The notes under the pieces are model-generated. The model worked only from the letters and a program-made list of their open reading frames with translations, did not search any database and was not told the origin of the DNA. 64,000 nt of DNA from Dehalococcoidia bacterium (GTDB lineage: Bacteria; Chloroflexota; Dehalococcoidia; Lucifugimonadales; CATOSD01). The DNA lies in contig CBDHFB010000016.1 of the NCBI GenBank assembly GCA_965262385.1, positions 3,510,032-3,574,031 on the forward strand, read 5' to 3'. A program made the translations under genes and the position numbers. Below are positions 9,031 through 44,197 of the stretch, piece by piece; within the stretch, counting starts at the first letter, position 1; each line of letters starts with the position of its first letter.

Positions 9031-9174
9031 CTAGACCTCCTGTTGGGACAGCTCCGCGTCTTCATTCCCGCATGCAACCAGGAGAAGGGCGATCAGCACG
9101 GCCAGCGCCGCGACACAGGCGGGAGGGGACGCGCGAACGTAGCGAACGCGGTGGAGGCCCACCACCCCCAACAT
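9031..9174 (-). CDS. Possible small lipoprotein (47 aa), ends at TAG 9031-9033
   Basis: Signal-peptide-like AALAVLIALLLVAC with a lipobox Cys. The frame stays open for 38 more codons after the TAG, to TAA 8914-8916. Confidence 0.3.
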   Translation of the reverse strand: MLGVVGLHRVRYVRASPPACVAALAVLIALLLVACGNEDAELSQQEV

Positions 9175-9208
9175 ACACCCGACACGCCGACACACCGCTC
9201 GCGTCCGA

Positions 9209-23345: not shown

Positions 23346-23458
23346 CTCGTCCATGTATGCGGGCCTTTTTTGTTGCCCTTTTTCGACCGCGTATTGAATT
23401 CTTTCCGTGTTTACCATAGTCTAAGAAGTGAAAAAACCATCCTGAGGAGGGATTGACA

Positions 23459-27400: not shown

Positions 27401-30400
27401 GACTATCGCGACAGGTCCGGCGGCCCGTACAGCCGCGTGGTCGCCGTCGGGGTGGCCGTGACCGTCACCGACGACGACACCGCCGGGGTGACGGTGTCCG
27501 AAACCACGCTGACGGTGACCGAGGGCGGCAGCGCCACCTACACGGTGGTCCTGGATGCCCAGCCCGCCGCCGACGTGCTGATTCGCATTGACCTCAACAA
27601 CCTGGACGTGGGGGTGGACGCCGATGCGGGTAGGGCAGGCGCCCAGGTCTTCATGCTCTTCACCCCGGGCAACTGGAACACGCCGCAGACGGTGAAGGTG
27701 TCCGCCGCCCAGGACGCCGACGCCGCGGACGACCAAGCCCAGCTGGGCCACGCGGTAAGCTATACGACCGACAGGTCCGGCCCGTACAACAGCGTGCTCG
27801 CCGCCGGGGTGGCCGTGACCGTCACCGACGACGAGACCGCCGGGGTGACGGTGTCCGAAACCACGCTGACAGTGGTCGAGGGCGCCAGCAACACCTACAC
27901 GGTGAAACTGGACCCCCAGCCCTCCTCCGACGTGGTGATCAGCGTCACCGCCAGCGGCAATACGGACGTGACCGTGTCTCCGGCGCGGCTGACCTTCACC
28001 TCGAGCAACTGGAGCACGGCGCAGACGGTGACGGTGTCCGCCGCCCACGACGCCGACGCGGTGAACGACACGGCCTCCATCGCCCACGCGGTGGTGGCCG
28101 CCGAAAGCGCCGACGAGTACGACACCGCGACCATCGCCGGGGTGGCGGTGACCGTCGCCGATGACGACGCGGGCGTGACAAACTCCGAATCCACGCTGGT
28201 GGTGGCCGAGGGCGGCAGCGCCACCTACACCGTGGCGCTGAGCACCCGGCCCTCCGCCGACGTGGCGATTATCATCGCCGACGACAACCCGGACGTGACG
28301 GCGGACACCGACGCCGCGACGTCCGGCAACCAGGACAGGCTGACCTTCACCCCGGCCAACTGGAGCACACCGCAGACGGTGACGGTGGCCGCCGCACACG
28401 ACGCCGACGCGGTGAACGACAAAGCCCAGCTGCGCTACACTGTGTCGTCCGGCAACGCGTCCGGCCCGTACAGCGGCTTGGCCGCCGACGGGGTGGCCGT
28501 GACCGTCACCGACGACGACGACGCCGGCGTGACGGTGTCCGAAACCACGCTGACCGTGGCCGAGGGCGGCAGCGCCACCTACACGGTGGTCCTGGACGCC
28601 CAGCCCACCTCCGACGTGGTGATCAACGTAACCAAGAGCGGCAGCTCCGACGTAACGGTGTCGCCGGCCACCCTGACCTTCACCGGGGACAACTGGGACA
28701 CGGCGCAGACGGTGACAGTGGCCGCCGCCCACGACGCCGACGCGGCGGACGACGCGGCGTCCATCACCCACGCGGTGGCGCCCGCCGAAAGCGCCGACGA
28801 GTACGACACCGCGACCATCGCCGGGGTGGCGGTGACCGTCGACGACGACGAGACCGCCGGGGTGACGGTGTCCAGGCCCAGGATGAGGATGGACGAGGGC
28901 GGCAGCAACACCTACACCGTGGCGCTGAACGCCCAGCCCGCCTCCGACGTGGTGATCGCGGTGACCAGCAACAATTCCGACGTGACGGTGGACACCGACG
29001 CGGCGACGTCCGGCAGCCAGAACACGCTGACCTTCACCCCGAGCAACTGGAGCACGGCGCAGACGGTGACGGTGGCCGCGGACCAGGACGCCGACGCGGC
29101 GAACGACAAGGCCGCCATCACCCACGCGGTGGTGGCCGCCCAAAGCGCCGACGAGTACGACAGCGTGACCATCGCCCGGGTGAGGGTGACCGTCGTCGAC
29201 GACGAAATCGGCACCGCCGGGGTGAGAAGCTCCGTGTCCAGGCTGTCGGTGGCCGAGGGCGGCAGCGCAACCTACACCGTGGTCCTGGACGCGCAGCCCG
29301 AGGCGAGGGTGAGGGTCTGGATTTTTCTCATCTCCGACGGGAACGTGTCACGGACGCCGAGTCGGCTGGAATTCACGCCGTCCAACTGGAGCACGGCGCA
29401 GACGGTGACGTTGTCCGCCGCCCAGGACGCCGACACGAGGATCAGCGCGGCCCAGATCTCCTACTTTATATCGTGCGCCAGCAGATGCAGACCGTACAAC
29501 AACAACACGACATACAGCAACGTGGTGGAGGTGATCGTCGTCGACGACGAAGTTGTAGGGGTAACGCTGCCCGAAACCACGCTGACGGTGCTCGAGGGTG
29601 GCAACCGCACCTACACCGTGGTGCTGAACAGGCAGCCCACCTCCGACGTGGTGATCAACGTCACCAAAAGCGGCAGTGACGACCTGACGGCGACTCCGGC
29701 CAGCCTGACCTTCACCACGAGCAACTGGAGCACGCCGCAGACGGTGACGGTGCGGGCCGCCCAGGACGCCGACGCAGCGAACGACACGGCGTCCATCACC
29801 CACGCGGTGGTGGCCTCCCGGAGCGCCGACGAGTACGACGCCGTGAGCATCGCCGGGGTGGCCGTGACCGTCACCGACGACGAGACCGCCGGGGTGACGG
29901 TGTCCGAAACCACGCTGACGGTGGCCGAGGGCGGCAGCGGCGCCTACACCGTGGTCTTGGACGTGCAGCCCACCTCCGACGTGGTAATCAACGTAACCAA
30001 AAGCGGCAGTGACGACGTAACGGTGTCTCCGGCCACCCTGACCTTCACGACGGCCAACTGGAGCACGGCGCAGACGGTGACGGTGGCTGCCGCCCAGGAC
30101 GCCGACGCGGTGAACGACGCGGCCTCCATCGCCCACGCCGTCGACGCCTCCCGGAGCGCCAACGAGTACGACAACATGACCATCGCCGGGGTGGCCGTGA
30201 CCGTCACCGACGACGACACCGCCGGGGTGAGCGTGTCCGAGACCACGCTGACGGTGGACGAGGGCGGCCGCGGCTCCTACACGGTGAGGCTGAACACGCA
30301 GCCCACCTCCAACGTGGTGATCAGCGTCACCAAGACCGGTAGTACCGACGTGACGGTGTCGCCGGCCACCCTGACCTTCACGACGAGCAACTGGAGCACG

Positions 30401-33400
30401 GCGCAGACGGTGACGGTGGCTGCCGCCCAGGACGCCGACGCGGTGAACGACGCGGCCTCCATCACCCACGCGGTGGTGGCCTCCCGGAGCGCCGACGAGT
30501 TCGACGCCGTGAACATCGCCGGGGTGGCCGTGACCGTCACCGACGACGAGACCGCCGGGGTGACGGTGTCCAAATCGACGCTGACGGTGGCCGAGGGGGG
30601 CAGCGGCGCCTACACGGTGGTCCTGGACGCCCTGCCCACCTCCGACGTGGTGATCAGCGTCACCAGGACCGGCAGCAGCGACGTGACGCTGGACACCGAC
30701 ACGGGGACGTCCGGCAACCAGACCACGCTGACCTTCACCCCGGCCAACTGGGACACGGCGCAGACGGTGACGGTGGCTGCCGCCCAGGACGCCGACGCGG
30801 TGAACGACGCGGCCTCCATCACCCACGCGGTGGTGGCCTCCCGGAGCGCCGACGAGTTCGACGCCGTGACCATCGCCGGGGTGGCCGTGACCGTCACCGA
30901 CGACGAGACCGCCGGGGTGACGGTGTCCAAATCGACGCTGACGGTGGACGAGGGCGGCAGCGGCTCCTACACGGTGAGGCTGAACCTTCAGCCCGCCTCC
31001 GACGTGGTGATCAGCGTAACCAGGACCGGCAGCCCCGACGTGACGGTGTCTCCGGCCACCCTGACCTTCACCCGGGCCAACTGGAGCACGGCGCAGACGG
31101 TAAGGGTGTCCGCCGCCCAGGACGCCGACGCGGTGAACGACGCGGCCTCCATCGCCCACGCGGTGGTGGCCGCCAGCAGCGCCAACGAGTACGACGCCGT
31201 GACCATCGGCTCGGTGGCGGTGACCGTCACCGACAACGACGCCGGGGCGACGGTGTCCGAGACCACGCTGACGATTACGGAGGGCAACAGTTCCACCTAC
31301 ACGGTGGTCCTGGACGCCCAGCCCGCCTCCGACGTGGTGATCACGGTGAGCAGCGACAATTCGGACGTGACGGTGTCGCCGGCCACCCTGACCTTCACGC
31401 CGTCCAACTGGAGCACGGCGAAGACGGTGACGGTGGCCGCGGCCCAGGACGCCGACGCGGTGAACGACACGGCCGCCATCGCCCACGCCGTCGACGCCGC
31501 CCGCAGCGCCAACGAGTTCGACGCCGTGACCATCGCCGGGGTGGCCGTGGCCGTGACCGTCACCGACGACGACACCGCCGGGGTGACCGTGTCCGTCATT
31601 TCGGTGACGGCGCCGGAGGGCGACAGCGGCGCCTACACGGTGGTCCTGGACGTGCAACCCAGCTCCGACGTAGTGATAAGCGTAACCAAAAGCGGCAGTC
31701 CCGACGTAACGGTGTCTCCGGCCACGCTGACCTTCACGCCGTCCAACTGGGACACGGCGCAGACGGTGACGGTGCGGGCCGCCCAGGACGCCGACGCGGT
31801 GGACGACGCGGCGTCCATCAGCCACGCGGTGGTGGCCGCCCGCAGCGCCAACGAGTTCGACCTAGTCACCGTGGCCGGGGTGACGGTGACCGTCGACGAC
31901 GACGACACCGCCGGGGTGACGGTCTACCCCACGAGTTACAATACGTTTGAGGACACCGCGAACGCCTACACCGTGAAGCTGGACGCCCAACCCAGCTCCG
32001 ACGTGGTGATCCGGGTCACCTCCACCGGCAGTTCCGACGTGACGGTGGACACCGACCGAAGGACGCCCGGCAACCAGGACACGCTCACCTTCACCCCGAG
32101 CAACTGGAGCACGGCGCAGCGAGTGTGGGTGGTGAGCGCAGCGGACGACGACGCGGTGAACGACGTGGCCTCCATCAGCCACGCGGTGGTGGCCGCCGAA
32201 AGCGCCGACGAGTACGACAGCGTGATGATCGTCTCGTTTGCGGTGACCGTCACCGACGACGAGACCGCCGGGGTGACGGTGTCCGAAACCACGCTGACGG
32301 TTGCCGAGGGCGGCAGCGCAACCTACACGGTGGTCCTGGACGCCCAGCCCGCCTCCGACGTGGTGATCGGCGTCACCAAGACCGGCAGCTCCGACGTGAC
32401 GCTGGACACCGACACGGGGACGTCCGGCAACCAGACCACGCTGACCTTCACCCCGTCCAACTGGGACACGGCGCAGACGGTGACGGTAGCTGCCGCCCAG
32501 GACGCCGACGCGGTGGACGGCGCGGCCTCCATCGCCCACGCCGTCGACGCCGCCCGCAGCGCCAACGAGTACGACAACGTGACCATCGCCGGGGTGGCGG
32601 TGACCGTCACCGACGACGACACCGCCGGGGTGACGGTGTCCGCGTCGTCGGTGACGGTTGCCGAGGGCGGCAGCGCAACCTACACGGTGGTGCTGAACCT
32701 TCAACCCACCTCCGACGTGGTGATCAACGTGACCAAACGCGGCAGCCCCGACGTGACGGTGTCGCCGGCGCGGCTGACCTTCACGACGGCCAACTGGAGC
32801 ACGGCGCAGACGGTGACGGTGGCCGCGGCCCAGGACGCCGACGCGGTGGACGACGCGGCCGCCATCGCCCACGCCGTCGACGCCGCCCGCAGCGCCAACG
32901 AGTACGACAACGTGACCATCGCCGGGGTGGCCGTGACCGTCACCGACGACGACACCGCCGGGGTGAGCGTGTCCGAGACCACGCTGACGGTGGACGAGGG
33001 CGGCCGCGGCTCCTACACGGTGAGGCTGAACACGCAGCCCACCTCCGACGTGGTGATCGGCGTAACCAGGAGCGGCAGCCCCGACGTGACAGTGTCTCCG
33101 GCCACCCTGACCTTCTCCTCGTCCAACTGGGCCACGGCGCAGACGGTGACGGTGGCTGCCGCCCAGGACGCCGACGCGGTGAACGACACGGCCGCCATCA
33201 CCCACGCGGTCGACGCCTCCCGGAGCGCCAACGAGTTCGACGCCGTGACCATCGCCGGGGTGACGGTGACCGTCGACGACGACGAGACCGCCGGGGTGAC
33301 GGTGTCCGAAACCACGCTGACGGTGGCCGAGGGCGGCAGCGGCGCCTACACCGTGGTCCTGGACGTGCAGCCCACCTCCGACGTGGTGATCAACGTCACC

Positions 33401-36400
33401 AAAAGCGGCAGCAGCGACGTGACGGTGTCTCCGGCCACCCTGACCTTCACGACGGCCAACTGGAGCACGGCGAAGACGGTGACGGTGGCTGCCGCCCAGG
33501 ACGCCGACGCGGTGAACGACGCGGCCTCCATCGCCCACGCCGTCGACGCCGCCCGCAGCGCCAACGAGTACGACAACATGACCATCGCCGGGGTGGCCGT
33601 GACCGTCACCGACGACGACACCGCCGGGGTGAGCGTGTCCGAGACCACGCTGACGGTGGACGAGGGCGGCCGCGGCTCCTACACGGTGAGGCTGAACACG
33701 CAGCCCACCTCCAACGTGGTGATCAGCGTCACCAAGACCGGCAGTACCGACGTGACGGTGTCGCCGGCCACCCTGACCTTCACCACGAGCAACTGGAGCA
33801 CGGCGAAGACGGTGACGGTGGCTGCCGCCCAGGACGCCGACGCGGTGAACGACGCGGCCTCCATCTCCCACGCCGTCGACGCCTCCCGCAGCGCCGACGA
33901 GTTCGACGCCGTGAACATCGCCGGGGTGGCGGTGGCCGTGACCGACGACGAGACCGCCGGGGTGAGCGTGTCCGAGACCACGCTGACGGTGGACGAGGGC
34001 GGCCGCGGCTCCTACACGGTGAGGCTGAACACGCAGCCCACCTCCAACGTGGTGATCAGCGTCACCAAGACCGGCAGTACCGACGTGACGGTGTCGCCGG
34101 CCACCCTGACCTTCACCACGAGCAACTGGAGCACGGCGAAGACGGTGACGGTGGCTGCCGCCCAGGACGCCGACGCGGTGAACGACGCGGCCTCCATCAC
34201 CCACGCGGTGGTGGCCGCCAGCAGCGCCAACGAGTTCGACCTAGTCACCGTGGCCGGGGTGGCCGTGACCGTCACCGACGACGAGACCGCCGGGGTGACG
34301 GTGTCCGAAACCACGCTGACGGTTGCCGAGGGCGGCAGCGCAACCTACACGGTGGTCCTGGACGCCCAGCCCACCTCCGACGTGGTGATCAACGTCACCA
34401 AAAGCGGCAGCAGCGACGTGACGGTGTCTCCGGCGCGGCTGACCTTCACGACGGCCAACTGGAGCACGGCGAAGACGGTGACGGTGGCTGCCGCCCAGGA
34501 CGCCGACGCGGTGGACGACGCGGCCGCCATCTCCCACGCCGTCGACGCCTCCCGCAGCGCCAACGAGTTCGACGCCGTGAACATCGCCGGGGTGGCGGTG
34601 GCCGTGACCGACGACGACACCGCCGGGGTGAGCGTGTCCGAAACCGCGCTGGAGGTGGCCGAGGGCGGTAGCGGCTCCTACACGGTGAGGCTGAACACGC
34701 AGCCCACCTCCGACGTGGTGATCGGCGTAACCAGGAGCGGCAGCCCCGACGTGACAGTGTCTCCGGCCACCCTGACCTTCTCCTCGTCCAACTGGGCCAC
34801 GGCGCAGACGGTGACGGTGGCTGCCGCCCAGGACGCCGACGCGGTGAACGACGCGGCCGCCATCTCCCACGCCGTCGACGCCTCCCGCAGCGCCGACGAG
34901 TTCGACGCCGTGAACATCGCCGGGGTGGCGGTGGCCGTGACCGACGACGAGACCGCCGGGGTGACGGTGTCCGAAACCGCGCTGGAGGTGGCCGAGGGCG
35001 GTAGCGGCTCCTACACGGTGAGGCTGAACACGCAGCCCACCTCCAACGTGGTGATCAGCGTCACCAAGACCGGCAGTACCGACGTGACGCTGGACACCGA
35101 CACGGGGACGTCCGGCAACCAGACCACGCTGACCTTCACCCCGGCCAACTGGGACACGGCGCAGACGGTGACGGTGGCTGCCGCCCAGGACGCCGACGCG
35201 GTGGACGACGCGGCCGCCATCTCCCACGCCGTCGACGCCTCCCGCAGCGCCAACGAGTTCGACGCCGTGAACATCGCCGGGGTGGCGGTGGCCGTGACCG
35301 ACGACGAGACCGCCGGGGTGAGCGTGTCCGAAACCGCGCTGGAGGTGGCCGAGGGCGGTAGCGGCTCCTACACGGTGAGGCTGAACACGCAGCCCACCTC
35401 CAACGTGGTGATCAGCGTCACCAAGACCGGCAGTACCGACGTGACGCTGGACACCGACACGGGGACGTCCGGCAACCAGACCACGCTGACCTTCACGACG
35501 GCCAACTGGAGCACGGCGCAGACGGTGACGGTGGCTGCCGCCCAGGACGCCGACGCGGTGAACGACGCGGCCTCCATCGCCCACGCCGTCGACGCCGCCC
35601 GCAGCGCCAACGAGTACGACAACGTGATGATCGCCTCGTTTGCCGTGACCGTCACCGACGACGATACCGCCGGGGTGACGGTGTCCGAAACCACGCTGAC
35701 GGTGGACGAGGGCGGCAGCGGCTCCTACACGGTGAGGCTGAACACGCAGCCCGCCTCCGACGTGGTGATCAACGTCACCCGCAGCGGCAGCGCCGACGTG
35801 ACGGCGTCTCCGGCCACCCTGACCTTCACTCCGGGCAACTGGAACACGGCGCAGACGGTAAGGGTGGCCGCGGCGCAGGACGACGACGCGGTGAACGACA
35901 CGGCCTCCATCGCCCACGCCGTCGACGCCTCCCGCAGCGCCAACGAGTACGACGCCGTGAGCATCGCCGGGGTGGCCGTGACCGTCACCGACGACGATAC
36001 CGCCGGGGTGAGCGTGTCCGAAACCGCGCTGACGGTTGCCGAGGGCGGCAGCGCAACCTACACCGTGGTCCTGGACGCCCAGCCCACCTCCGACGTGGTG
36101 ATCGGCGTCACCAAGACCGGCAGTACCGACGTGACAGTGTCTCCGGCCACCCTGACCTTCACCACGAGCAACTGGAGCACGGCGCAGACGGTGACGGTGG
36201 CTGCCGCCCAGGACGCCGACGCGGTGGACGACGCGGCGTCCATCACCCACGCGGTGGTGGCCTCCCGGAGCGCCGACGAGTTCGACGCCGTGAACATCGC
36301 CGGGGTGGCGGTGGCCGTCACCGACGACGAGACCGCCGGGGTGAGCGTGTCCGAAACCGCGCTGACGGTTGCCGAGGGCGGTAGCGGCTCCTACACGGTG

Positions 36401-39400
36401 AGGCTGAACACGCAGCCCACCTCCAACGTGGTGATCAGCGTCACCAGGACCGGCAGTACCGACGTGACGCTGGACACCGACACGGGGACGTCCGGCAACC
36501 AGACCACGCTGACCTTCACGACGGCCAACTGGAGCACGGCGCAGACGGTGACGGTGGCTGCCGCCCAGGACGCCGACGCGGTGAACGACGCGGCCTCCAT
36601 CGCCCACGCCGTCGACGCCGCCCGCAGCGCCAACGAGTACGACAACGTGATGATCGCCTCGTTTGCCGTGACCGTCACCGACGACGATACCGCCGGGGTG
36701 ACGGTGTCCGAAACCACGCTGACGGTGGACGAGGGCGGCAGCGGCTCCTACACGGTGAGGCTGAACACGCAGCCCGCCTCCGACGTGGTGATCAACGTCA
36801 CCCGCAGCGGCAGCGCCGACGTGACGGCGTCTCCGGCCACCCTGACCTTCACTCCGGGCAACTGGAACACGGCGCAGACGGTAAGGGTGGCCGCGGCGCA
36901 GGACGACGACGCGGTGAACGACACGGCCTCCATCGCCCACGCCGTCGACGCCTCCCGCAGCGCCAACGAGTACGACGCCGTGAGCATCGCCGGGGTGGCC
37001 GTGACCGTCACCGACGACGATACCGCCGGGGTGAGCGTGTCCGAAACCGCGCTGACGGTTGCCGAGGGCGGCAGCGCAACCTACACCGTGGTCCTGGACG
37101 CCCAGCCCACCTCCGACGTGGTGATCGGCGTCACCAAGACCGGCAGTACCGACGTGACAGTGTCTCCGGCCACCCTGACCTTCACCACGAGCAACTGGAG
37201 CACGGCGCAGACGGTGACGGTGGCTGCCGCCCAGGACGCCGACGCGGTGGACGACGCGGCCGCCATCTCCCACGCCGTCGACGCCTCCCGCAGCGCCAAC
37301 GAGTACGACGCCGTGACCATCGCCGGGGTGGCGGTGACCGTCACCGACGACGACACCGCCGGGGTGACGGTGTCCGCGTCGTCGCTGACGGTGGCTGAGG
37401 GCGGCAGCGCAACCTACACGGTGGTGCTGAACCTTCAACCCACCTCCGACGTGGTGATCAACGTAACCAAAAGCGGCAGCAGCGACCTGACGGCGACTCC
37501 GGCCAGCCTGACCTTCACCACGAGCAACTGGAGCACGCCGCAGACGGTGACGGTGCGGGCCGCCCAGGACGCCGACGCGGTGGACGACGCGGCGTCCATC
37601 ACCCACGCGGTGGTGGCCTCCCGGAGCGCCAACGAGTACGACGCCGTGAGCATCGCCGGGGTGGCCGTGACCGTCACCGACGACGAGACCGCCGGGGTGA
37701 CGGTGTCCGAAACCACGCTGACGGTGGCCGAGGGCGGCAGCGGCGCCTACACCGTGGTCCTGGACGCCCAGCCCACCTCCGACGTGGTAATCAACGTCAC
37801 CCGCAGCGGCAGTACCGACGTAACGGTGTCTCCGGCCACCCTGACCTTCACCACGAGCAACTGGAGCACGGCGCAGACGGTGACGGTGGCTGCCGCCCAG
37901 GACGCCGACGCGGTGGACGACGCGGCCTCCATCTCCCACGCCGTCGACGCCTCCCGCAGCGCCAACGAGTACGACAACGTGAGCATCGCCGGGGTGGCCG
38001 TGACCGTCACCGACGACGAGACCGCCGGGGTGACGGTGTCCGAAACCACGCTGACGGTTGCCGAGGGCGGCAGCGCAACCTACACGGTGGTCCTGGACGC
38101 CCAGCCCACCTCCGACGTGGTAATCAACGTCACCCGCAGCGGCAGTACCGACGTGACGGTGTCTCCGGCCACCCTGACCTTCACCACGAGCAACTGGAGC
38201 ACGGCGCAGACGGTGACGGTGGCTGCCGCCCAGGACGCCGACGCGGTGGACGACGCGGCGTCCATCACCCACGCGGTGGTGGCCTCCCGGAGCGCCGACG
38301 AGTTCGACGCCGTGAACATCGCCGGGGTGGCGGTGACCGTCACCGACGACGAGACCGCCGGGGTGAGCGTGTCCGAAACCGCGCTGACGGTTGCCGAGGG
38401 CGGTAGCGGCTCCTACACGGTGAGGCTGAACACGCAGCCCACCTCCAACGTGGTGATCAGCGTCACCAGGACCGGCAGTACCGACGTGACGCTGGACACC
38501 GACACGGGGACGTCCGGCAACCAGACCACGCTGACCTTCACGACGGCCAACTGGAGCACGGCGCAGACGGTGACGGTGGCTGCCGCCCAGGACGCCGACG
38601 CGGTGAACGACGCGGCCTCCATCGCCCACGCCGTCGACGCCGCCCGCAGCGCCAACGAGTACGACAACGTGATGATCGCCTCGTTTGCCGTGACCGTCAC
38701 CGACGACGATACCGCCGGGGTGACGGTGTCCGAAACCACGCTGACGGTGGACGAGGGCGGCAGCGGCTCCTACACGGTGAGGCTGAACACGCAGCCCGCC
38801 TCCGACGTGGTGATCAACGTCACCCGCAGCGGCAGCGCCGACGTGACGGCGTCTCCGGCCACCCTGACCTTCACTCCGGGCAACTGGAACACGGCGCAGA
38901 CGGTAAGGGTGGCCGCGGCGCAGGACGACGACGCGGTGAACGACACGGCCTCCATCGCCCACGCCGTCGACGCCTCCCGCAGCGCCAACGAGTACGACGC
39001 CGTGAGCATCGCCGGGGTGGCCGTGACCGTCACCGACGACGATACCGCCGGGGTGAGCGTGTCCGAAACCGCGCTGACGGTTGCCGAGGGCGGCAGCGCA
39101 ACCTACACCGTGGTCCTGGACGCCCAGCCCACCTCCGACGTGGTGATCGGCGTCACCAAGACCGGCAGTACCGACGTGACAGTGTCTCCGGCCACCCTGA
39201 CCTTCACCACGAGCAACTGGAGCACGGCGCAGACGGTGACGGTGGCTGCCGCCCAGGACGCCGACGCGGTGGACGACGCGGCCGCCATCTCCCACGCCGT
39301 CGACGCCTCCCGCAGCGCCAACGAGTACGACGCCGTGACCATCGCCGGGGTGGCGGTGACCGTCACCGACGACGACACCGCCGGGGTGACGGTGTCCGCG

Positions 39401-42400
39401 TCGTCGCTGACGGTGGCTGAGGGCGGCAGCGCAACCTACACGGTGGTGCTGAACCTTCAACCCACCTCCGACGTGGTGATCAACGTAACCAAAAGCGGCA
39501 GCAGCGACCTGACGGCGACTCCGGCCAGCCTGACCTTCACCACGAGCAACTGGAGCACGCCGCAGACGGTGACGGTGCGGGCCGCCCAGGACGCCGACGC
39601 GGTGGACGACGCGGCGTCCATCACCCACGCGGTGGTGGCCTCCCGGAGCGCCAACGAGTACGACGCCGTGAGCATCGCCGGGGTGGCCGTGACCGTCACC
39701 GACGACGAGACCGCCGGGGTGACGGTGTCCGAAACCACGCTGACGGTGGCCGAGGGCGGCAGCGGCGCCTACACCGTGGTCCTGGACGCCCAGCCCACCT
39801 CCGACGTGGTAATCAACGTCACCCGCAGCGGCAGTACCGACGTAACGGTGTCTCCGGCCACCCTGACCTTCACCACGAGCAACTGGAGCACGGCGCAGAC
39901 GGTGACGGTGGCTGCCGCCCAGGACGCCGACGCGGTGGACGACGCGGCCTCCATCTCCCACGCCGTCGACGCCTCCCGCAGCGCCAACGAGTTCGACGCC
40001 GTGAGCATCGCCGGGGTGGCCGTGACCGTCACCGACGACGAGACCGCCGGGGTGACGGTGTCCGAAACCGCGCTGACGGTTGCCGAGGGCGGTAGCGGCT
40101 CCTACACGGTGAGGCTGAACACGCAGCCCACCTCCAACGTGGTGATCAGCGTCACCAGGACCGGCAGTACCGACGTGACGCTGGACACCGACACGGGGAC
40201 GTCCGGCAACCAGACCACGCTGACCTTCACGACGGCCAACTGGAGCACGGCGCAGACGGTGACGGTGGCTGCCGCCCAGGACGCCGACGCGGTGGACGAC
40301 GCGGCGTCCATCGCCCACGCCGTCGACGCCGCCCGCAGCGCCAACGAGTACGACAACGTGATGATCGCCTCGTTTGCGGTGACCGTCACCGACGACGAGA
40401 CCGCCGGGGTGACGGTGTCCGAAACCACGCTGACGGTTGCCGAGGGCGGCAGCGCAACCTACACGGTGGTGCTGAACCTTCAACCCACCTCCGACGTGGT
40501 GATCAACGTAACCAAAAGCGGCAGCAGCGACCTGACGGCGACTCCGGCCAGCCTGACCTTCACCACGAGCAACTGGAGCACGCCGCAGACGGTGACGGTG
40601 CGGGCCGCCCAGGACGCCGACGCGGTGGACGACGCGGCGTCCATCACCCACGCGGTGGTGGCCTCCCGGAGCGCCAACGAGTACGACGCCGTGAGCATCG
40701 CCGGGGTGGCGGTGACCGTCACCGACGACGAGACCGCCGGGGTGACGGTGTCCGAAACCACGCTGACGGTGGCCGAGGGCGGCAGCGGCGCCTACACCGT
40801 GGTCCTGGACGTGCAGCCCACCTCCGACGTGGTGATCAACGTAACCAAAAGCGGCAGTACCGACGTAACGGTGTCTCCGGCCACCCTGACCTTCACCACG
40901 AGCAACTGGAGCACGGCGCAGACGGTGACGGTGGCTGCCGCCCAGGACGCCGACGCGGTGGACGACGCGGCCTCCATCTCCCACGCCGTCGACGCCTCCC
41001 GCAGCGCCAACGAGTACGACAACGTGAGCATCGCCGGGGTGGCCGTGACCGTCACCGACGACGAGACCGCCGGGGTGACGGTGTCCGAAACCACGCTGAC
41101 GGTTGCCGAGGGCGGCAGCGCAACCTACACGGTGAAGCTGAACCTTCAGCCCACCTCCGACGTGGTGATCAACGTCACCCGCAGCGGCAGCGCCGACGTG
41201 ACGGCGTCTCCGGCCACCCTGACCTTCACTCCGGGCAACTGGAGCACGGCGCAGACGGTAAGGGTGGCCGCGGCGCAGGACGACGACGCGGTGAACGACA
41301 CGGCCTCCATCGCCCACGCGGTGGTGGCCGCCCAGAGCGCCAACGAGTATGACGGCGTTACCGTCGCCGGCGTGACGGTAACCGTCACTGACGACGACAC
41401 GCCGCCGCCCACCGGAGGCGGGAGTCCGCCCACTGGAGGTGGGGGTCCGCCCGACCGGAGTCCGACGTTCGCCTCGCGGACGGTAGACGACCAGGTCTAC
41501 ACAGTAGGCGAAGACGTAGGGACGGTGAGCCTGCCCCCCGCTCTTGGGGGCGACGGCAGGCTGCAATACAGCTTGTCGCCAGACCTGCCCGAGGGGCTGC
41601 GCTTCAACTCGGACCGCACCATCACCGGCACGCCCGGGGCGACGTTCACCAGGACGCGGTTCACCTATACCGCGACCGATTCCGACGGTGACCGTGTTCA
41701 CCTGCGCTTCTATATCACCGTGAGCGAGAGGCCGGGGGTGAGCGTGTCAGCCCCCACGGTGACGGTGACCGAGGGCGGCAGCGGAACCTACACGGTGAAG
41801 CTGAACCTTCAGCCCACCTCCGACGTGGTGATCAACGTCACCCGCAGCGGCAGCGCCGACGTGACGGCGTCTCCGGCCACCCTGACCTTCACTCCGGGCA
41901 ACTGGAGCACGGCGCAGACGGTAAGGGTGGCCGCGGCGCAGGACGACGACGCGGTGAACGACACGGCCTCCATCGCCCACGCGGTGGTGGCCGCCCAGAG
42001 CGCCAACGAGTATGACGGCGTTACCGTCGCCGGCGTGACGGTAACCGTCACTGACGACGACACGCCGCCGCCCACCGGAGGCGGGAGTCCGCCCACTGGA
42101 GGTGGGGGTCCGCCCGACCGGAGTCCGACGTTCGCCTCGCGGACGGTAGACGACCAGGTCTACACAGTAGGCGAAGACGTAGGGACGGTGAGCCTGCCCC
42201 CCGCTCTTGGGGGCGACGGCAGGCTGCAATACAGCTTGTCGCCAGACCTGCCCGAGGGGCTGCGCTTCAACTCGGACCGCACCATCACCGGCACGCCCGG
42301 GGCGACGTTCACCAGGACGCGGTTCACCTATACCGCGACCGATTCCGACGGTGACCGTGTTCACCTGCGCTTCTATATCACCGTGAGCGAGAGGCCGGGG

Positions 42401-44197
42401 GTGAGCGTGTCAGCCCCCACGGTGACGGTGACCGAGGGCGGCAGCGGAACCTACACGGTGAAGCTGAACCTTCAGCCCACCTCCGACGTGGTGATCAACG
42501 TCACCAAAAGCGGCAGCAGCGACGTGACGGTGTCTCCGGCGCGGCTGACCTTCACGACGGCCAACTGGAGCACGGCGCAGACGGTGACGGTGGCTGCCGC
42601 CCAGGACGCCGACGCGGTGGACGACGCGGCGTCCATCACCCACGCGGTGGTGGCCTCCCGGAGCGCCGACGAGTTCGACGCCGTGAACATCGCCGGGGTG
42701 GCGGTGGCCGTGACCGACGACGAGACCGCCGGGGTGAGCGTGTCCGAAACCGCGCTGACGGTGGCCGAGGGCGGCAGCGCAACCTACACCGTGGTGCTGA
42801 ACCTTCAGCCCACCTCCGACGTGGTAATCAACGTCACCAAAAGCGGCAGCAGCGACGTGACGGTGTCTCCGGCGCGGCTGACCTTCACGACGGCCAACTG
42901 GAGCACGGCGCAGACGGTGACGGTGGCTGCCGCCCAGGACGCCGACGCGGTGAACGACGCGGCCTCCATCGCCCACGCCGTCGACGCCGCCCGCAGCGCC
43001 AACGAGTACGACAACGTGAGCATCGCCGGGGTGGCCGTGACCGTCACCGACGACGAGACCGCCGGGGTGACGGTGTCCGCGGCCACGCTGACGGTTGCCG
43101 AGGGCGGCAGCGCAACCTACACGGTGGTGCTGAACCTTCAACCCACCTCCGACGTGGTGATCAACGTCACCCGCAGCGGCAGCTCCGACGTGACGGCGTC
43201 TCCGGCCACCCTGACCTTCACTCCGGGCAACTGGAACACGGCGCAGACGGTAAGGGTGCGGGCGGCCCAGGACGCCGACGCGGCGAACGACGCGGCCGCC
43301 ATCGCCCACGCGGTGGTGGCCGCCCAGAGCGCCAACGAGTATGACGGCGTTACCGTCGCCGGCGTGACGGTAACCGTCACTGACGACGACACGCCGCCGC
43401 CCACCGGAGGCGGGAGTCCGCCCACTGGAGGTGGGGGTCCGCCCGACCGGAGTCCGACGTTCGCCTCGCGGACGGTAGACGACCAGGTCTACACAGTAGG
43501 CGAAGACGTAGGGACGGTGAGCCTGCCCCCCGCTCTTGGGGGCGACGGCAGGCTGCAATACAGCTTGTCGCCAGACCTGCCCGAGGGGCTGCGCTTCAAC
43601 TCGGACCGCACCATCACCGGCACGCCCGGGGCGACGTTCACCAGGACGCGGTTCACCTATACCGCGACCGATTCCGACGGTGACCGTGTTCACCTGCGCT
43701 TCTATATCACCGTGAGCGAGAGGCCGGGGGTGAGCGTGTCAGCCCCCACGGTGACGGTGACCGAGGGCGGCAGCGGAACCTACACGGTGAAGCTGAACCT
43801 TCAGCCCACCTCCGACGTGGTGATCAACGTCACCCGCAGCGGCAGCGCCGACGTGACGGCGTCTCCGGCCACCCTGACCTTCACTCCGGGCAACTGGAGC
43901 ACGGCGCAGACGGTAAGGGTGGCCGCGGCGCAGGACGACGACGCGGTGAACGACACGGCCTCCATCGCCCACGCGGTGGTGGCCGCCCAGAGCGCCAACG
44001 AGTATGACGGCGTTACCGTCGCCGGCGTGACGGTAACCGTCACTGACGACGAAACCGCCGGGGTGACGGTGTCCCCCACAAACGTGACGGCGGACGAGGG
44101 CGGCAACATTCCCAGCGCATGGGTCTTGGCGCTGATAGGCGTGCTGCTCAACCTCGTGGCCATAGGCGTCGCCATAGGCATCCGGCGGCGGCACTAG
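24410..44197 (+). CDS. Giant secreted, C-terminally membrane-anchored repeat protein (6595 aa): cadherin-like domains + PQQ-sugar-dehydrogenase-type propeller + 48 tandem repeats + He_PIG-like modules
   Basis: Single uninterrupted 19,788-nt ORF. Signal-peptide-like MMFAKLHRRQRILSAICALLLAFLTLSSATAQA. Cadherin-like blocks (DADNDALTYTL...VTNVDEPG; EEPNGEAITYSL...VTNEDDAG). Propeller motifs (RLRFGPDGYLWIATGD, YGHRNPQGLA, GGNYGWDP). Repeat array. C-terminal hydrophobic helix plus RRRH. Confidence 0.9.
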   Translation: MMFAKLHRRQRILSAICALLLAFLTLSSATAQAANSQPAFPSSEDGARSVAENTTAGANIGAPVGATDADNDALTYTLGGDDAASFTIVPSTGQLQTLAALNFEGKNSYSVTVSASDRKDATGNADTAIDATIDVTISVTNVDEPGTVILSPAQPRVGEVLRARVSDPDGVVVGSGIWGWLKSRDGTPDWSTVQNSAPYPSSYEVQAADLNFYLQATVSYVDGHGLGKSAVGVSQRVAAKAAAPQIHVEQLVSGLSIPWGIAFAPDGTMLFTERARKLSVRLADGTVRNVTADLSDVMVASEIGFMAIVVDPGFATNRRFYTCQGHTGDKVQVIAWTMNAGYTEATRVADPLVDGIPGSSRNHSGKHSGCRLRFGPDGYLWIATGDATTGSAPQSLTNLGGKVLRVVASTGAGAPGNPFSAPNSPLIYTYGHRNPQGLALRPGSSGQMWSVEHGPAFDDEINLLTAGGNYGWDPAPGYNESTPMTDLEKFPSAIEAKWASGNKSLAASGGIFLEGAWWGPWDGRLAVASLKDKTLRVLEFSPSGDLLSEISVSKLKNVYGRLRTPMMGPDGALYVSTSEDNGEDKILLVTPQVAPRFPVNTDTTWDTPENADITTIVATVAAEEPNGEAITYSLGGTDAASFNIKDTAVGELRANAPLDYETKSSYQVDVIATDPNSLSSKVTLTITVTNEDDAGAITLSSQAPVVGIDLTASITDPDGGVSSIGWTWSKSSDQTTWTAIAGATSSTYRPVAADVGSYLRATAAYTDSQGSGKNAQQKTDAPVAAAQIGVSVSETALTVAEGASATYTVVLDGQPASDVVIEVTSNNSDVTLDTDAAASGNQTTLTFTRANWSTAQTVTVAAADDADAVNDTASIAHAVVAAESADEYDAATIAGVVVTVTDDDTAGVTVSESTLTLDEGASATYTVVLDAQPAAAVLIRIDNNNQDVKVDANATIPGLQPGMFFTPSNWNTPQTVMVSAAQDADAVDDKAQLSHAVDYRDRSGGPYSRVVAVGVAVTVTDDDTAGVTVSETTLTVTEGGSATYTVVLDAQPAADVLIRIDLNNLDVGVDADAGRAGAQVFMLFTPGNWNTPQTVKVSAAQDADAADDQAQLGHAVSYTTDRSGPYNSVLAAGVAVTVTDDETAGVTVSETTLTVVEGASNTYTVKLDPQPSSDVVISVTASGNTDVTVSPARLTFTSSNWSTAQTVTVSAAHDADAVNDTASIAHAVVAAESADEYDTATIAGVAVTVADDDAGVTNSESTLVVAEGGSATYTVALSTRPSADVAIIIADDNPDVTADTDAATSGNQDRLTFTPANWSTPQTVTVAAAHDADAVNDKAQLRYTVSSGNASGPYSGLAADGVAVTVTDDDDAGVTVSETTLTVAEGGSATYTVVLDAQPTSDVVINVTKSGSSDVTVSPATLTFTGDNWDTAQTVTVAAAHDADAADDAASITHAVAPAESADEYDTATIAGVAVTVDDDETAGVTVSRPRMRMDEGGSNTYTVALNAQPASDVVIAVTSNNSDVTVDTDAATSGSQNTLTFTPSNWSTAQTVTVAADQDADAANDKAAITHAVVAAQSADEYDSVTIARVRVTVVDDEIGTAGVRSSVSRLSVAEGGSATYTVVLDAQPEARVRVWIFLISDGNVSRTPSRLEFTPSNWSTAQTVTLSAAQDADTRISAAQISYFISCASRCRPYNNNTTYSNVVEVIVVDDEVVGVTLPETTLTVLEGGNRTYTVVLNRQPTSDVVINVTKSGSDDLTATPASLTFTTSNWSTPQTVTVRAAQDADAANDTASITHAVVASRSADEYDAVSIAGVAVTVTDDETAGVTVSETTLTVAEGGSGAYTVVLDVQPTSDVVINVTKSGSDDVTVSPATLTFTTANWSTAQTVTVAAAQDADAVNDAASIAHAVDASRSANEYDNMTIAGVAVTVTDDDTAGVSVSETTLTVDEGGRGSYTVRLNTQPTSNVVISVTKTGSTDVTVSPATLTFTTSNWSTAQTVTVAAAQDADAVNDAASITHAVVASRSADEFDAVNIAGVAVTVTDDETAGVTVSKSTLTVAEGGSGAYTVVLDALPTSDVVISVTRTGSSDVTLDTDTGTSGNQTTLTFTPANWDTAQTVTVAAAQDADAVNDAASITHAVVASRSADEFDAVTIAGVAVTVTDDETAGVTVSKSTLTVDEGGSGSYTVRLNLQPASDVVISVTRTGSPDVTVSPATLTFTRANWSTAQTVRVSAAQDADAVNDAASIAHAVVAASSANEYDAVTIGSVAVTVTDNDAGATVSETTLTITEGNSSTYTVVLDAQPASDVVITVSSDNSDVTVSPATLTFTPSNWSTAKTVTVAAAQDADAVNDTAAIAHAVDAARSANEFDAVTIAGVAVAVTVTDDDTAGVTVSVISVTAPEGDSGAYTVVLDVQPSSDVVISVTKSGSPDVTVSPATLTFTPSNWDTAQTVTVRAAQDADAVDDAASISHAVVAARSANEFDLVTVAGVTVTVDDDDTAGVTVYPTSYNTFEDTANAYTVKLDAQPSSDVVIRVTSTGSSDVTVDTDRRTPGNQDTLTFTPSNWSTAQRVWVVSAADDDAVNDVASISHAVVAAESADEYDSVMIVSFAVTVTDDETAGVTVSETTLTVAEGGSATYTVVLDAQPASDVVIGVTKTGSSDVTLDTDTGTSGNQTTLTFTPSNWDTAQTVTVAAAQDADAVDGAASIAHAVDAARSANEYDNVTIAGVAVTVTDDDTAGVTVSASSVTVAEGGSATYTVVLNLQPTSDVVINVTKRGSPDVTVSPARLTFTTANWSTAQTVTVAAAQDADAVDDAAAIAHAVDAARSANEYDNVTIAGVAVTVTDDDTAGVSVSETTLTVDEGGRGSYTVRLNTQPTSDVVIGVTRSGSPDVTVSPATLTFSSSNWATAQTVTVAAAQDADAVNDTAAITHAVDASRSANEFDAVTIAGVTVTVDDDETAGVTVSETTLTVAEGGSGAYTVVLDVQPTSDVVINVTKSGSSDVTVSPATLTFTTANWSTAKTVTVAAAQDADAVNDAASIAHAVDAARSANEYDNMTIAGVAVTVTDDDTAGVSVSETTLTVDEGGRGSYTVRLNTQPTSNVVISVTKTGSTDVTVSPATLTFTTSNWSTAKTVTVAAAQDADAVNDAASISHAVDASRSADEFDAVNIAGVAVAVTDDETAGVSVSETTLTVDEGGRGSYTVRLNTQPTSNVVISVTKTGSTDVTVSPATLTFTTSNWSTAKTVTVAAAQDADAVNDAASITHAVVAASSANEFDLVTVAGVAVTVTDDETAGVTVSETTLTVAEGGSATYTVVLDAQPTSDVVINVTKSGSSDVTVSPARLTFTTANWSTAKTVTVAAAQDADAVDDAAAISHAVDASRSANEFDAVNIAGVAVAVTDDDTAGVSVSETALEVAEGGSGSYTVRLNTQPTSDVVIGVTRSGSPDVTVSPATLTFSSSNWATAQTVTVAAAQDADAVNDAAAISHAVDASRSADEFDAVNIAGVAVAVTDDETAGVTVSETALEVAEGGSGSYTVRLNTQPTSNVVISVTKTGSTDVTLDTDTGTSGNQTTLTFTPANWDTAQTVTVAAAQDADAVDDAAAISHAVDASRSANEFDAVNIAGVAVAVTDDETAGVSVSETALEVAEGGSGSYTVRLNTQPTSNVVISVTKTGSTDVTLDTDTGTSGNQTTLTFTTANWSTAQTVTVAAAQDADAVNDAASIAHAVDAARSANEYDNVMIASFAVTVTDDDTAGVTVSETTLTVDEGGSGSYTVRLNTQPASDVVINVTRSGSADVTASPATLTFTPGNWNTAQTVRVAAAQDDDAVNDTASIAHAVDASRSANEYDAVSIAGVAVTVTDDDTAGVSVSETALTVAEGGSATYTVVLDAQPTSDVVIGVTKTGSTDVTVSPATLTFTTSNWSTAQTVTVAAAQDADAVDDAASITHAVVASRSADEFDAVNIAGVAVAVTDDETAGVSVSETALTVAEGGSGSYTVRLNTQPTSNVVISVTRTGSTDVTLDTDTGTSGNQTTLTFTTANWSTAQTVTVAAAQDADAVNDAASIAHAVDAARSANEYDNVMIASFAVTVTDDDTAGVTVSETTLTVDEGGSGSYTVRLNTQPASDVVINVTRSGSADVTASPATLTFTPGNWNTAQTVRVAAAQDDDAVNDTASIAHAVDASRSANEYDAVSIAGVAVTVTDDDTAGVSVSETALTVAEGGSATYTVVLDAQPTSDVVIGVTKTGSTDVTVSPATLTFTTSNWSTAQTVTVAAAQDADAVDDAAAISHAVDASRSANEYDAVTIAGVAVTVTDDDTAGVTVSASSLTVAEGGSATYTVVLNLQPTSDVVINVTKSGSSDLTATPASLTFTTSNWSTPQTVTVRAAQDADAVDDAASITHAVVASRSANEYDAVSIAGVAVTVTDDETAGVTVSETTLTVAEGGSGAYTVVLDAQPTSDVVINVTRSGSTDVTVSPATLTFTTSNWSTAQTVTVAAAQDADAVDDAASISHAVDASRSANEYDNVSIAGVAVTVTDDETAGVTVSETTLTVAEGGSATYTVVLDAQPTSDVVINVTRSGSTDVTVSPATLTFTTSNWSTAQTVTVAAAQDADAVDDAASITHAVVASRSADEFDAVNIAGVAVTVTDDETAGVSVSETALTVAEGGSGSYTVRLNTQPTSNVVISVTRTGSTDVTLDTDTGTSGNQTTLTFTTANWSTAQTVTVAAAQDADAVNDAASIAHAVDAARSANEYDNVMIASFAVTVTDDDTAGVTVSETTLTVDEGGSGSYTVRLNTQPASDVVINVTRSGSADVTASPATLTFTPGNWNTAQTVRVAAAQDDDAVNDTASIAHAVDASRSANEYDAVSIAGVAVTVTDDDTAGVSVSETALTVAEGGSATYTVVLDAQPTSDVVIGVTKTGSTDVTVSPATLTFTTSNWSTAQTVTVAAAQDADAVDDAAAISHAVDASRSANEYDAVTIAGVAVTVTDDDTAGVTVSASSLTVAEGGSATYTVVLNLQPTSDVVINVTKSGSSDLTATPASLTFTTSNWSTPQTVTVRAAQDADAVDDAASITHAVVASRSANEYDAVSIAGVAVTVTDDETAGVTVSETTLTVAEGGSGAYTVVLDAQPTSDVVINVTRSGSTDVTVSPATLTFTTSNWSTAQTVTVAAAQDADAVDDAASISHAVDASRSANEFDAVSIAGVAVTVTDDETAGVTVSETALTVAEGGSGSYTVRLNTQPTSNVVISVTRTGSTDVTLDTDTGTSGNQTTLTFTTANWSTAQTVTVAAAQDADAVDDAASIAHAVDAARSANEYDNVMIASFAVTVTDDETAGVTVSETTLTVAEGGSATYTVVLNLQPTSDVVINVTKSGSSDLTATPASLTFTTSNWSTPQTVTVRAAQDADAVDDAASITHAVVASRSANEYDAVSIAGVAVTVTDDETAGVTVSETTLTVAEGGSGAYTVVLDVQPTSDVVINVTKSGSTDVTVSPATLTFTTSNWSTAQTVTVAAAQDADAVDDAASISHAVDASRSANEYDNVSIAGVAVTVTDDETAGVTVSETTLTVAEGGSATYTVKLNLQPTSDVVINVTRSGSADVTASPATLTFTPGNWSTAQTVRVAAAQDDDAVNDTASIAHAVVAAQSANEYDGVTVAGVTVTVTDDDTPPPTGGGSPPTGGGGPPDRSPTFASRTVDDQVYTVGEDVGTVSLPPALGGDGRLQYSLSPDLPEGLRFNSDRTITGTPGATFTRTRFTYTATDSDGDRVHLRFYITVSERPGVSVSAPTVTVTEGGSGTYTVKLNLQPTSDVVINVTRSGSADVTASPATLTFTPGNWSTAQTVRVAAAQDDDAVNDTASIAHAVVAAQSANEYDGVTVAGVTVTVTDDDTPPPTGGGSPPTGGGGPPDRSPTFASRTVDDQVYTVGEDVGTVSLPPALGGDGRLQYSLSPDLPEGLRFNSDRTITGTPGATFTRTRFTYTATDSDGDRVHLRFYITVSERPGVSVSAPTVTVTEGGSGTYTVKLNLQPTSDVVINVTKSGSSDVTVSPARLTFTTANWSTAQTVTVAAAQDADAVDDAASITHAVVASRSADEFDAVNIAGVAVAVTDDETAGVSVSETALTVAEGGSATYTVVLNLQPTSDVVINVTKSGSSDVTVSPARLTFTTANWSTAQTVTVAAAQDADAVNDAASIAHAVDAARSANEYDNVSIAGVAVTVTDDETAGVTVSAATLTVAEGGSATYTVVLNLQPTSDVVINVTRSGSSDVTASPATLTFTPGNWNTAQTVRVRAAQDADAANDAAAIAHAVVAAQSANEYDGVTVAGVTVTVTDDDTPPPTGGGSPPTGGGGPPDRSPTFASRTVDDQVYTVGEDVGTVSLPPALGGDGRLQYSLSPDLPEGLRFNSDRTITGTPGATFTRTRFTYTATDSDGDRVHLRFYITVSERPGVSVSAPTVTVTEGGSGTYTVKLNLQPTSDVVINVTRSGSADVTASPATLTFTPGNWSTAQTVRVAAAQDDDAVNDTASIAHAVVAAQSANEYDGVTVAGVTVTVTDDETAGVTVSPTNVTADEGGNIPSAWVLALIGVLLNLVAIGVAIGIRRRH
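25138..26185 (+). other. PQQ-dependent sugar (glucose/sorbosone) dehydrogenase-type beta-propeller domain inside the giant ORF
   Basis: LVSGLSIPWGIAFAPDG, HSGCRLRFGPDGYLWIATGD, LIYTYGHRNPQGLALRP, MWSVEHGPAFDDEINLLTAGGNYGWDP. Confidence 0.7.
41402..41734 (+). other. Pro/Gly linker + He_PIG (putative Ig / dystroglycan-type cadherin-like) module 1
   Basis: PPPTGGGSPPTGGGGPPDRSPTF followed by ...YTVGEDVGTVSLPPALGGDGRLQYSLSPDLPEGLRFNSDRTITGTPGATFTRTRFTYTATDSDGDRVHLRFYITV. Confidence 0.6.
42065..42397 (+). other. He_PIG-like module 2
   Basis: Same peptide as module 1, offset by 663 bp. Confidence 0.6.
43394..43726 (+). other. He_PIG-like module 3
   Basis: Same peptide as module 1, offset by 1329 bp from module 2. 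Confidence 0.6.

Follow-up and report, generated by a model that had tools for sequence, protein, structure and literature searches.

The window analysed here, a stretch of 64,000 nucleotides from an uncultured member of the Dehalococcoidia (contig CBDHFB010000016.1 of the GenBank assembly GCA_965262385.1), carries a giant gene, called the stalk gene in what follows, whose reading frame is unbroken over 19.8 kb (24410-44197) and whose product combines a non-repeat head, a stalk of immunoglobulin (Ig)-like units and a C-terminal hydrophobic helix. The stretch 33758-42876 probably encodes the rapidly evolving central part of a stalk that belongs to a giant surface protein anchored through its C-terminal tail, and unequal recombination or slippage, together with gene conversion, would vary the length of the stalk there. 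The starting point is a set of near-identical block duplications inside the repeat array, which are real and far beyond chance, although the boundaries given for them in a previous reading of the letters (the sequence-only reading, made without database searches) are only approximate.

The duplicated pairs were found by scanning all diagonals of the array and, in addition, its exact runs. The youngest of them consists of two copies of 1953 bp at an offset of 2022 bp, each made of the end of one unit, five complete units and the start of another, which differ at 6 positions, all of them within 200 bp of either end. Between these edges lies the longest exact repeat of the gene (Table 1), and the unit pairs 29 and 35, 30 and 36, 31 and 37, and 32 and 38 are 100% identical, with 99.1% between units 33 and 39. 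The sequence-only reading had described this pair as a six-unit block (36338-38359) recurring at 38360-40381. The period of 2022 bp holds, but the blocks delimited in that way agree at only 1881 of 2022 positions (93.0%) and are identical just to 37970, past which they diverge, since the sixth units of the two blocks belong to different types (111 aa in unit 34, 119 aa in unit 40); what had been taken for six units is in fact five, flanked by a piece of one more on either side, and the sixth unit was not copied. The three-unit block that it had placed at 35315-36337 and again at 36338-37360 does recur with a period of 1023 bp (1006 of 1023 positions, 98.3%), but out of its best register, with mismatches at both ends. 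The unit numbering used there, and kept here, agrees to within 3 bp with the map obtained from a hidden Markov model (HMM) of the units (unit 26 = 35312-35668; unit 29 = 36335-36691). As for the four pairs of antisense ORFs (open reading frames) cited in support of the duplication, they are indeed identical, and necessarily so, because all of them lie inside the 1656-bp exact core; they are evidence of nothing, being open frames of a GC-rich repeat.

Further copies lie on both sides of this pair. In its corrected register the older three-unit duplication is 985 bp long and relates 35253-36237 to 36276-37260 (offset 1023 bp, 5 mismatches) and also to 38298-39282 (offset 3045 bp, 6 mismatches). 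The partial copies that had been noticed from 40102 onwards are there as well: units 40, 41 and 42 are 97-98% identical to units 29/35, 32/38 and 33/39, respectively, and the same relationship appears on the diagonals as 37397-38089 = 40442-41134 (693 bp, 8 mismatches) and 39419-40092 = 40442-41115 (674 bp, 12 mismatches). If the unit types are given letters, the order of units 26-42 is ABC' / ABCDEF / ABCDE / A'D'E'. Outside the coordinates considered by the sequence-only reading, the membrane-proximal end of the array contains super-modules (an Ig unit, a Pro/Gly linker and a He_PIG module) that have been duplicated too, with 41307-42060 and 43299-44052 identical over 754 bp, 41106-41842 and 41769-42505 differing at 1 of 737 bp, and 41970-42505 an exact copy of 43299-43834.

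The offsets of the Ig-unit blocks are sums of whole units (1023 = 357+333+333; 2022 = 357+5x333), and the identities stand out from the background of the array, where the median DNA identity between unit pairs is 85% (87% if units 9-48 alone are considered), no more than 12 of the 1128 pairs are at 98% or above, and exact runs outside the recent blocks do not exceed 285 bp. The divergence is graded, with no difference in the 1656-bp core, about 0.5% in the three-unit copy and 1.2-1.8% in the A'D'E' copies, and blocks that differ in divergence in this way speak for several events at different times. In addition, mismatches come in clusters (for example 37971/37976/37977 and 35342/35343/35347) and short variant patches such as 'G.AGGTG' recur in units 28, 32, 34, 38 and 41, which is the pattern expected from conversion or mosaic recombination; the hybrid tail of unit 28 recurs in unit 34.

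The whole gene was then compared among nine orthologous alleles, namely that of the window and those of eight sister loci in metagenome-assembled genomes (MAGs) of Dehalococcoidia; all nine come from metagenome assemblies, and the copy numbers given are those of the assembled sequences. The heads are 90-100% identical, and the genes span 16,893-21,791 bp, and contain between 40 and 55 Ig-like units and from 0 to 7 He_PIG modules. Every allele has near-exact duplications of its own, of 0.8-2.4 kb and at whole-unit offsets (1550 bp at offset 690 in G044, 1372 bp at offset 2379 in G042, 1760 bp at offset 1998 in G046 and an exact 2358 bp at offset 1992 in L013), and those of the window are found in none of the eight sisters. 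This range of 40-55 units and the private duplications of each allele lend support to the ongoing expansion and contraction of the stalk that the sequence-only reading had proposed.

The nearest allele, L013, can be aligned gaplessly with the first 9,348 bp of the gene in the window (99.66% identity) and matches its last 1,321 bp at 99.62%; between the ends of these two anchors, at 33757 and 42877, the two alleles are not collinear. Only 2 single-nucleotide polymorphisms (SNPs) fall in the 2,358 bp of the head, and the remaining 5' differences are clustered inside repeats. An argument from a molecular clock, by which the youngest duplication would postdate the split from L013, was dropped, because with so few SNPs in the head the lack of any difference in 1656 bp is not improbable. 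The division between a stable and an unstable part of the array also appears in the unit maps of 11 related proteins, most of which keep the same order for about the first 15-20 units and differ, each from the others, in the distal order; four of the 11 have an older three-unit insertion, and collinearity is less regular in the two with the most divergent heads (P0020 and P0023). With each 300-bp piece of the window assigned to its best match among all alleles, the middle proved to be a mosaic of sequence from different alleles, matched at 93-100%. One segment of it (C-D, window ~36860-37760) is present twice in the window, plus a third, diverged copy, and occurs once, at 100% identity, in the examined portion of L015/P0014, which may represent the state before the duplication; the best matches of other pieces are at 93-98%.

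Two further observations concern the sister alleles. One metagenome assembly, ERZ26694896, contains at least three co-existing alleles on contigs of differing coverage, so that closely related strains with different stalks share one sample. Besides, four of the eight sister alleles (L013, G042, G043 and G046) are interrupted inside the array; in L013 the interruption is a scar of ~131 nt (gene coordinates 10944-10981) in which the sequence is scrambled, part of a unit is lost and the frame is shifted, with no homopolymer slip, and it could be a real pseudogenisation or an assembly problem.

Table 1. Features of the stalk gene in the window, lengths and unit contents of the nine alleles, and contigs of the assembly with co-existing alleles.
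Feature	Position in window	Strand	Size	Description
Giant stalk ORF	24410-44197	+	6,595 aa	Single frame; ORF list and translation
Head-proximal array, units 1 to ~21	26768-33757	+		Collinear and orthologous among alleles
Hypervariable array middle	33758-42876	+		Collinear in no sister allele; holds all recent Ig-unit block duplications
Youngest duplication, copy 1	36118-38070	+		End of unit 28, units 29-33, start of unit 34
Youngest duplication, copy 2	38140-40092	+		End of unit 34, units 35-39, start of unit 40
Longest exact repeat in gene	36315-37970	+	1656 bp	Identical to 38337-39992
Older three-unit duplication, copy 1	35253-36237	+		Units 26-28 = A B C'
Units 40-42 (A' D' E')	40046-41068	+		Older partial block copy; unit identity matrix, diagonal scan
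Membrane-proximal super-modules	41106-44052	+		Ig unit + Pro/Gly linker + He_PIG; duplicated at offsets 663, 1329 and 1992 bp
Antisense open frame	34241-41701	-	2,486 codons	ORF list
Allele, window			19,788 bp	48 Ig-like + 3 He_PIG; intact
Allele G041			16,893 bp	40 Ig-like + 2 He_PIG
Allele G042			17,778 bp	41 Ig-like + 2 He_PIG; frame breaks
Allele G043			21,791 bp	51 Ig-like + 2 He_PIG; frame breaks
Allele G044			17,187 bp	40 Ig-like + 3 He_PIG
Allele G045			19,101 bp	45 Ig-like + 4 He_PIG
Allele G046			19,744 bp	49 Ig-like + 0 He_PIG; frame break
Allele L013			19,339 bp	42 Ig-like + 7 He_PIG; 131-nt scar
Allele G047			21,521 bp	55 Ig-like + 1 He_PIG
ERZ26694896, ctg117996				53x; L013
ERZ26694896, ctg117957				34x; L062/G042
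ERZ26694896, ctg109830				6.6x; L063

The predicted protein gives these duplications a structural context. Tandem Repeats Finder delimits an array of 333/357-bp repeats from ~26.8 to 43.4 kb, in which an HMM profile built from the units themselves recognises 48 Ig-like units of 111 or 119 aa each. Pfam scans, which covered three segments of the protein including a 650-aa mid segment and the C-terminal 1098 aa, gave 229.9 bits for GSDH, 78.9 bits for Cadherin and 65 bits for He_PIG. The head (aa 1-~786) is composed of a cadherin domain, a GSDH β-propeller and another cadherin domain, and the match to PF07995 (GSDH) spans profile positions 1-329 of 332, that is, a full-length propeller; NCBIfam model TIGR03606 reaches 104 bits in the head against a cut-off of 434, and since this is far below the cut-off the propeller is assigned to the GSDH fold and not to that equivalog. 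For the repeat unit there are only weak Pfam signals (fn3_6, ASH, LapA) and no curated family at the level of the single domain. AlphaFold2, run on an alignment of 40 units to model one of them, yielded a confident β-sandwich (predicted local distance difference test, pLDDT, 94.6), for which Foldseek retrieved from the PDB generic PapD-like, MSP, ASH and fn3_6-like sandwiches at E ~1e-4; a sequence search of the PDB with the unit returned nothing below E=0.1. Most units of the array abut directly, with no linkers, and the three Pro/Gly linkers that exist precede the three He_PIG modules in the C-terminal part of the stalk.

On inspection of the translation, the N terminus has the layout of a Sec-type signal (a basic n-region, a hydrophobic core and an AQA motif) and the C terminus ends in ~23 hydrophobic residues, a transmembrane (TM) helix, followed by RRRH. 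An LPXTG motif is lacking, and none of the curated C-terminal sorting models (LPXTG/sortase, PEP-CTERM, PGF-CTERM and GPS-CTERM) was found above threshold; the tail encoded by 44060-44197 (NIPSAW, the hydrophobic helix and RRRH) obtains 16.4 bits with GPS-CTERM (E=0.0074), below its cut-off of 28. The allele G041 has a variant tail whose last residues are RRRR. The likely topology, judged from these sequence features, is a C-terminal anchor in the cytoplasmic membrane, a rod formed by the 48 Ig-like domains, with the head at its tip; the signal peptide, the C-terminal helix and the RRRH would together provide the attachment to the cell surface.

The repeat, with ~70% GC, also leaves a very long frame open on the opposite strand (Table 1). 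All Pfam matches and all homologues belong to the sense frame, and the antisense frame is most likely a by-product of a GC-rich repeat without stops, so it is not regarded as a gene. Other long antisense frames, most likely of the same compositional origin, are found at 25850-29143, 29348-31825 and 31862-34204.

Regarding the mechanism, misaligned homologous recombination of the RecA type between sister chromosomes, or replication slippage, could gain or lose whole units in register, since adjacent units are 85-95% identical in their DNA and have many mismatch-free stretches of 120 bp or more in common, and gene conversion could transfer short patches between units; recA is present in the genome. 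The order of events would then be the duplication of a three-unit block (A B C, 1023 bp) followed, later, by that of the block whose period is about six units (2022 bp), and the A'D'E' copy and the copies of the He_PIG super-modules would have been left by earlier events. Each new exact block of 1-2 kb would in turn offer recombination an even better substrate, so that units would be gained or lost again and the array middle would turn over fast, with both ends remaining orthologous. A simple single-crossover model with a hybrid unit at each junction was also considered and fits only in part, as the units are mosaics of shared patches. The net effect would be a heritable variation in stalk length, and thereby in the projection of the head, among closely related cells. 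Ig-like domains are ~4 nm long, and at ~4 nm per domain the 40-55 units could make a rod of roughly 0.16-0.22 micrometre.

Several points weigh against such a fast-evolving, length-varying stalk. The copy number and the junctions of the array are known from the assembly alone, and the junctions created by the duplications of the window (u28/u29, u33-u35 and u39-u41) have no independent witness, being absent from all fetched alleles and database proteins; a search among fragment-sized proteins with units 32-40 gave nothing above 82% identity. The frameshifts and scars inside the array in four of the eight sister alleles reflect real decay or the difficulty of the assembler, block conversion at constant copy number would produce the same identical blocks in a single sequence, and surface location, rod geometry and function are predictions.

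The first of these points leads to the possibility that the array was expanded, collapsed or stitched from the alleles of two strains during assembly, in which case the 2022-bp duplication would exist on no single chromosome. The source is indeed a metagenome-type MAG (16 contigs, 5.5% contamination), a strain-chimeric consensus is conceivable because at least three alleles (53x, 34x and 6.6x) co-exist in ERZ26694896, and four sister alleles have frame breaks inside the array, one of them the 131-nt scar. The sequence-only reading had already called the assembled copy number uncertain, and that warning still holds. However, we consider an artefact unlikely. A contig of 3.6 Mb in a genome of 4.54 Mb implies long reads, and reads of a few kb would be uniquely placeable, because the longest exact repeat measures only 1.66 kb and the sequence around it carries a unit-specific variant every few tens of bases. 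At their edges the two copies show 6 differences, and the second is followed by a different unit type, which excludes a simple double traversal of a loop by the assembler. Furthermore, the frame is intact over 19.8 kb, the other 15 contigs of the genome contain no second copy of the gene and no alternative haplotig, and all independent alleles have the same kind of block duplication, each with different blocks. Very unlikely, finally, is that a conversion tract of ~2 kb pasted units 29-33 onto five existing, diverged units 35-39 with the copy number unchanged: short variant motifs patchily common to non-adjacent units indicate that conversion-like exchange does occur in the array, and the mismatches gather at the block edges as they would at the ends of conversion tracts, but a tract of 2 kb is long, copy-number-changing events do occur, given that the alleles range from 40 to 55 units, and the offsets and the nested order (with the hybrid tail of unit 28 again in unit 34) fit sequential tandem duplication more simply, apart from the fact that conversion and duplication are not mutually exclusive and both yield concerted evolution.

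Sequential tandem duplication in a variable stalk, together with gene conversion, remains our preferred reading. As for the distribution of the gene, a database search with the 840-aa head retrieved proteins with 85-100% identical heads, whose full length ranges from 3,741 to 6,084 aa; frame breaks truncate several of these. One related protein has 7,299 aa, and neither P0014 nor P0016 was on record in an exact-sequence look-up. The loci with 90-100% identical heads belong to MAGs labelled Dehalococcoidia bacterium, and the same accession batches include MAGs of Candidatus Poriferisodalis, Aldehydirespirator and Binatia, a sponge-type community. The giant gene (compared over 24410-36000 of the window) was also seen on chromosome-scale contigs (4.1-4.6 Mb) of MAGs labelled Actinomycetota/Acidimicrobiia (L023, L024 and L026), namely Ca. 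Aldehydirespirator, Aldehydirespiratoraceae and Ca. Poriferisodalis. These orthologues have full-length heads with 84-87% amino acid identity and ~80-83% DNA identity over more than 10 kb, and their upstream flanks bear no similarity to the window, which, at the level of sequence, suggests horizontal transfer between phyla in one host community, or mislabelled bins.

The neighbourhood of the gene appears variable and rich in mobile elements, since L013 has a DDE transposase ~600 bp upstream of the gene (8076-9401, against window 23412-23435) that the window does not have, and in all the sister genomes the similarity to the window stops ~400 bp past the stop codon (window 44603 onward). The sister genomes contain one or two further giant paralogues (loci L022/G041, L047/G046, L049/G042, L043 and L044), which range from a full-length head 86.7% identical to that of the window (L022), through 86% over only part of the head (L043 and L044), to 73-76% in the best segments (L047 and L049); the window genome has only distant paralogues, with at most 45% identity. 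The repeat family is very widespread in metagenomes: with 37358-40402 as query, 1,421 proteins were found at E<=1e-100 among the fragment-sized candidates, and the source name (Calx-beta) appears only on distant members. Upstream in the window, a 219-bp tandem repeat (19803-20229, 1.9 copies, 80% identity) lies inside a 363-aa ORF (19595-20686), whose counterpart at a sister locus is annotated with several helix-turn-helix (HTH) domains.

Tentatively, the gene might act as a population-level generator of diversity for host interaction, and as a 'symbiosis adhesin' that is both shared and mobile and has an inherent variation in length; this is a possibility that we rate well below the structural reading. 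Nearly clonal symbionts of one host would then bear stalks with 40-55 Ig units and 0-7 He_PIG hinges, and the stalks of co-existing cells would differ because rearrangement of the array outruns the accumulation of point mutations, any selective benefit being putative; the mobile part of the idea comes from the apparent movement of the gene between phyla, as seen in the Acidimicrobiia orthologues. If the alleles are real, the variable-length strategy of cultured pathogens extends to Chloroflexota symbionts that are uncultured, where its scale is far larger (genes of about 20 kb with 40-55 domains), and structural turnover at this locus outpaces point substitution. The stalk gene would thus be a concrete locus at which to see how symbiont populations diversify their surface within one host, with the added interest of the allele diversity in a single sample and of the apparent inter-phylum transfer. 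A practical consequence is that the length of this gene is untrustworthy in assemblies without spanning reads.

Among known systems, the giant adhesins of the RTX/LapA type are an evident comparison, and the ice-binding adhesin of Marinomonas primoryensis has about 120 near-identical BIg repeats of 104 aa. Such adhesins have in common with the stalk protein a very long extender of β-sandwich repeats of ~100 aa, a repeat number that is hard to assemble, and ligand-binding domains (predicted for the stalk protein) at the far end. A weak signal for the LapA domain PF20579 sums to 37.9 bits in the C-terminal segment (cut-off 27), with no single stretch passing alone, and to 17.1 bits in the 650-aa mid segment. 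Nevertheless, an adhesin exported by a type I secretion system (T1SS) was rejected: there is no RTX (HemolysinCabind) match in the C-terminal 1098 aa, which end in a TM helix, the Pfam scans gave no type I secretion signal and export would proceed through the N-terminal Sec signal, and the polarity is reversed, with the head N-terminal and the anchor C-terminal. A Calx-beta repeat protein was rejected as well, as there is no match to PF03160 at E<=0.01 in the three scanned segments; the Calx-beta name or domain is found only on distant homologues (35-40% identity). At the DNA level, the array resembles the higher-order repeat (HOR) arrays of alpha-satellite DNA and variable number tandem repeats (VNTRs), which evolve by unequal crossing-over, in its multi-unit organisation over a basic period, its conserved and diverged edges, its homogenised interior and its nested, graded events; unlike them, it is coding, its events respect the frame and the domain register, and each block has only 2-3 copies. 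Studies of sponge symbionts reportedly describe an enrichment of eukaryote-like proteins with cadherin, fn3 and Ig repeats, to which the cadherin domains of the head and the MAG batches shared with sponge-symbiont genera are akin; to our knowledge, those studies have not resolved repeat dynamics at the level of alleles.

The closest described class is that of the Periscope Proteins (SasG/Aap, Rib, Sgo_0707, CdrA and Esp), in which a stalk of highly similar, mostly Ig-like tandem domains varies in number between strains by intragenic recombination, altering the projection of the N-terminal part (Whelan et al. 2021, PMC8201768), and the stalk gene looks like a match in architecture and behaviour. 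It shares with them a tandem array of folded domains (48 units, with pairs of up to 100% DNA identity and a median of 85%), a unit number that ranges from 40 to 55 among nine close alleles from metagenome assemblies, and a non-repeat head (GSDH propeller and cadherin) distal to an anchor-like helix, for which ligand binding is predicted only. The differences lie in the host, here an uncultured symbiont-type bacterium of the Chloroflexota (Dehalococcoidia) instead of cultured pathogens; in the anchor, a plain C-terminal TM helix with RRRH where theirs is LPXTG or an outer-membrane system; in the repeat unit, outside the curated Pfam families at the single-domain level; in the heterogeneity of the repeats, which are identical only in the newest blocks; and in the mode of change, which proceeds by multi-unit blocks (three units, about six units, or a unit plus He_PIG) and is confined to the middle of the array. 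With these particularities, the product of the stalk gene appears to be a variable-length surface protein of the "Periscope" type, ordinary in kind although well documented, and its class is already known.

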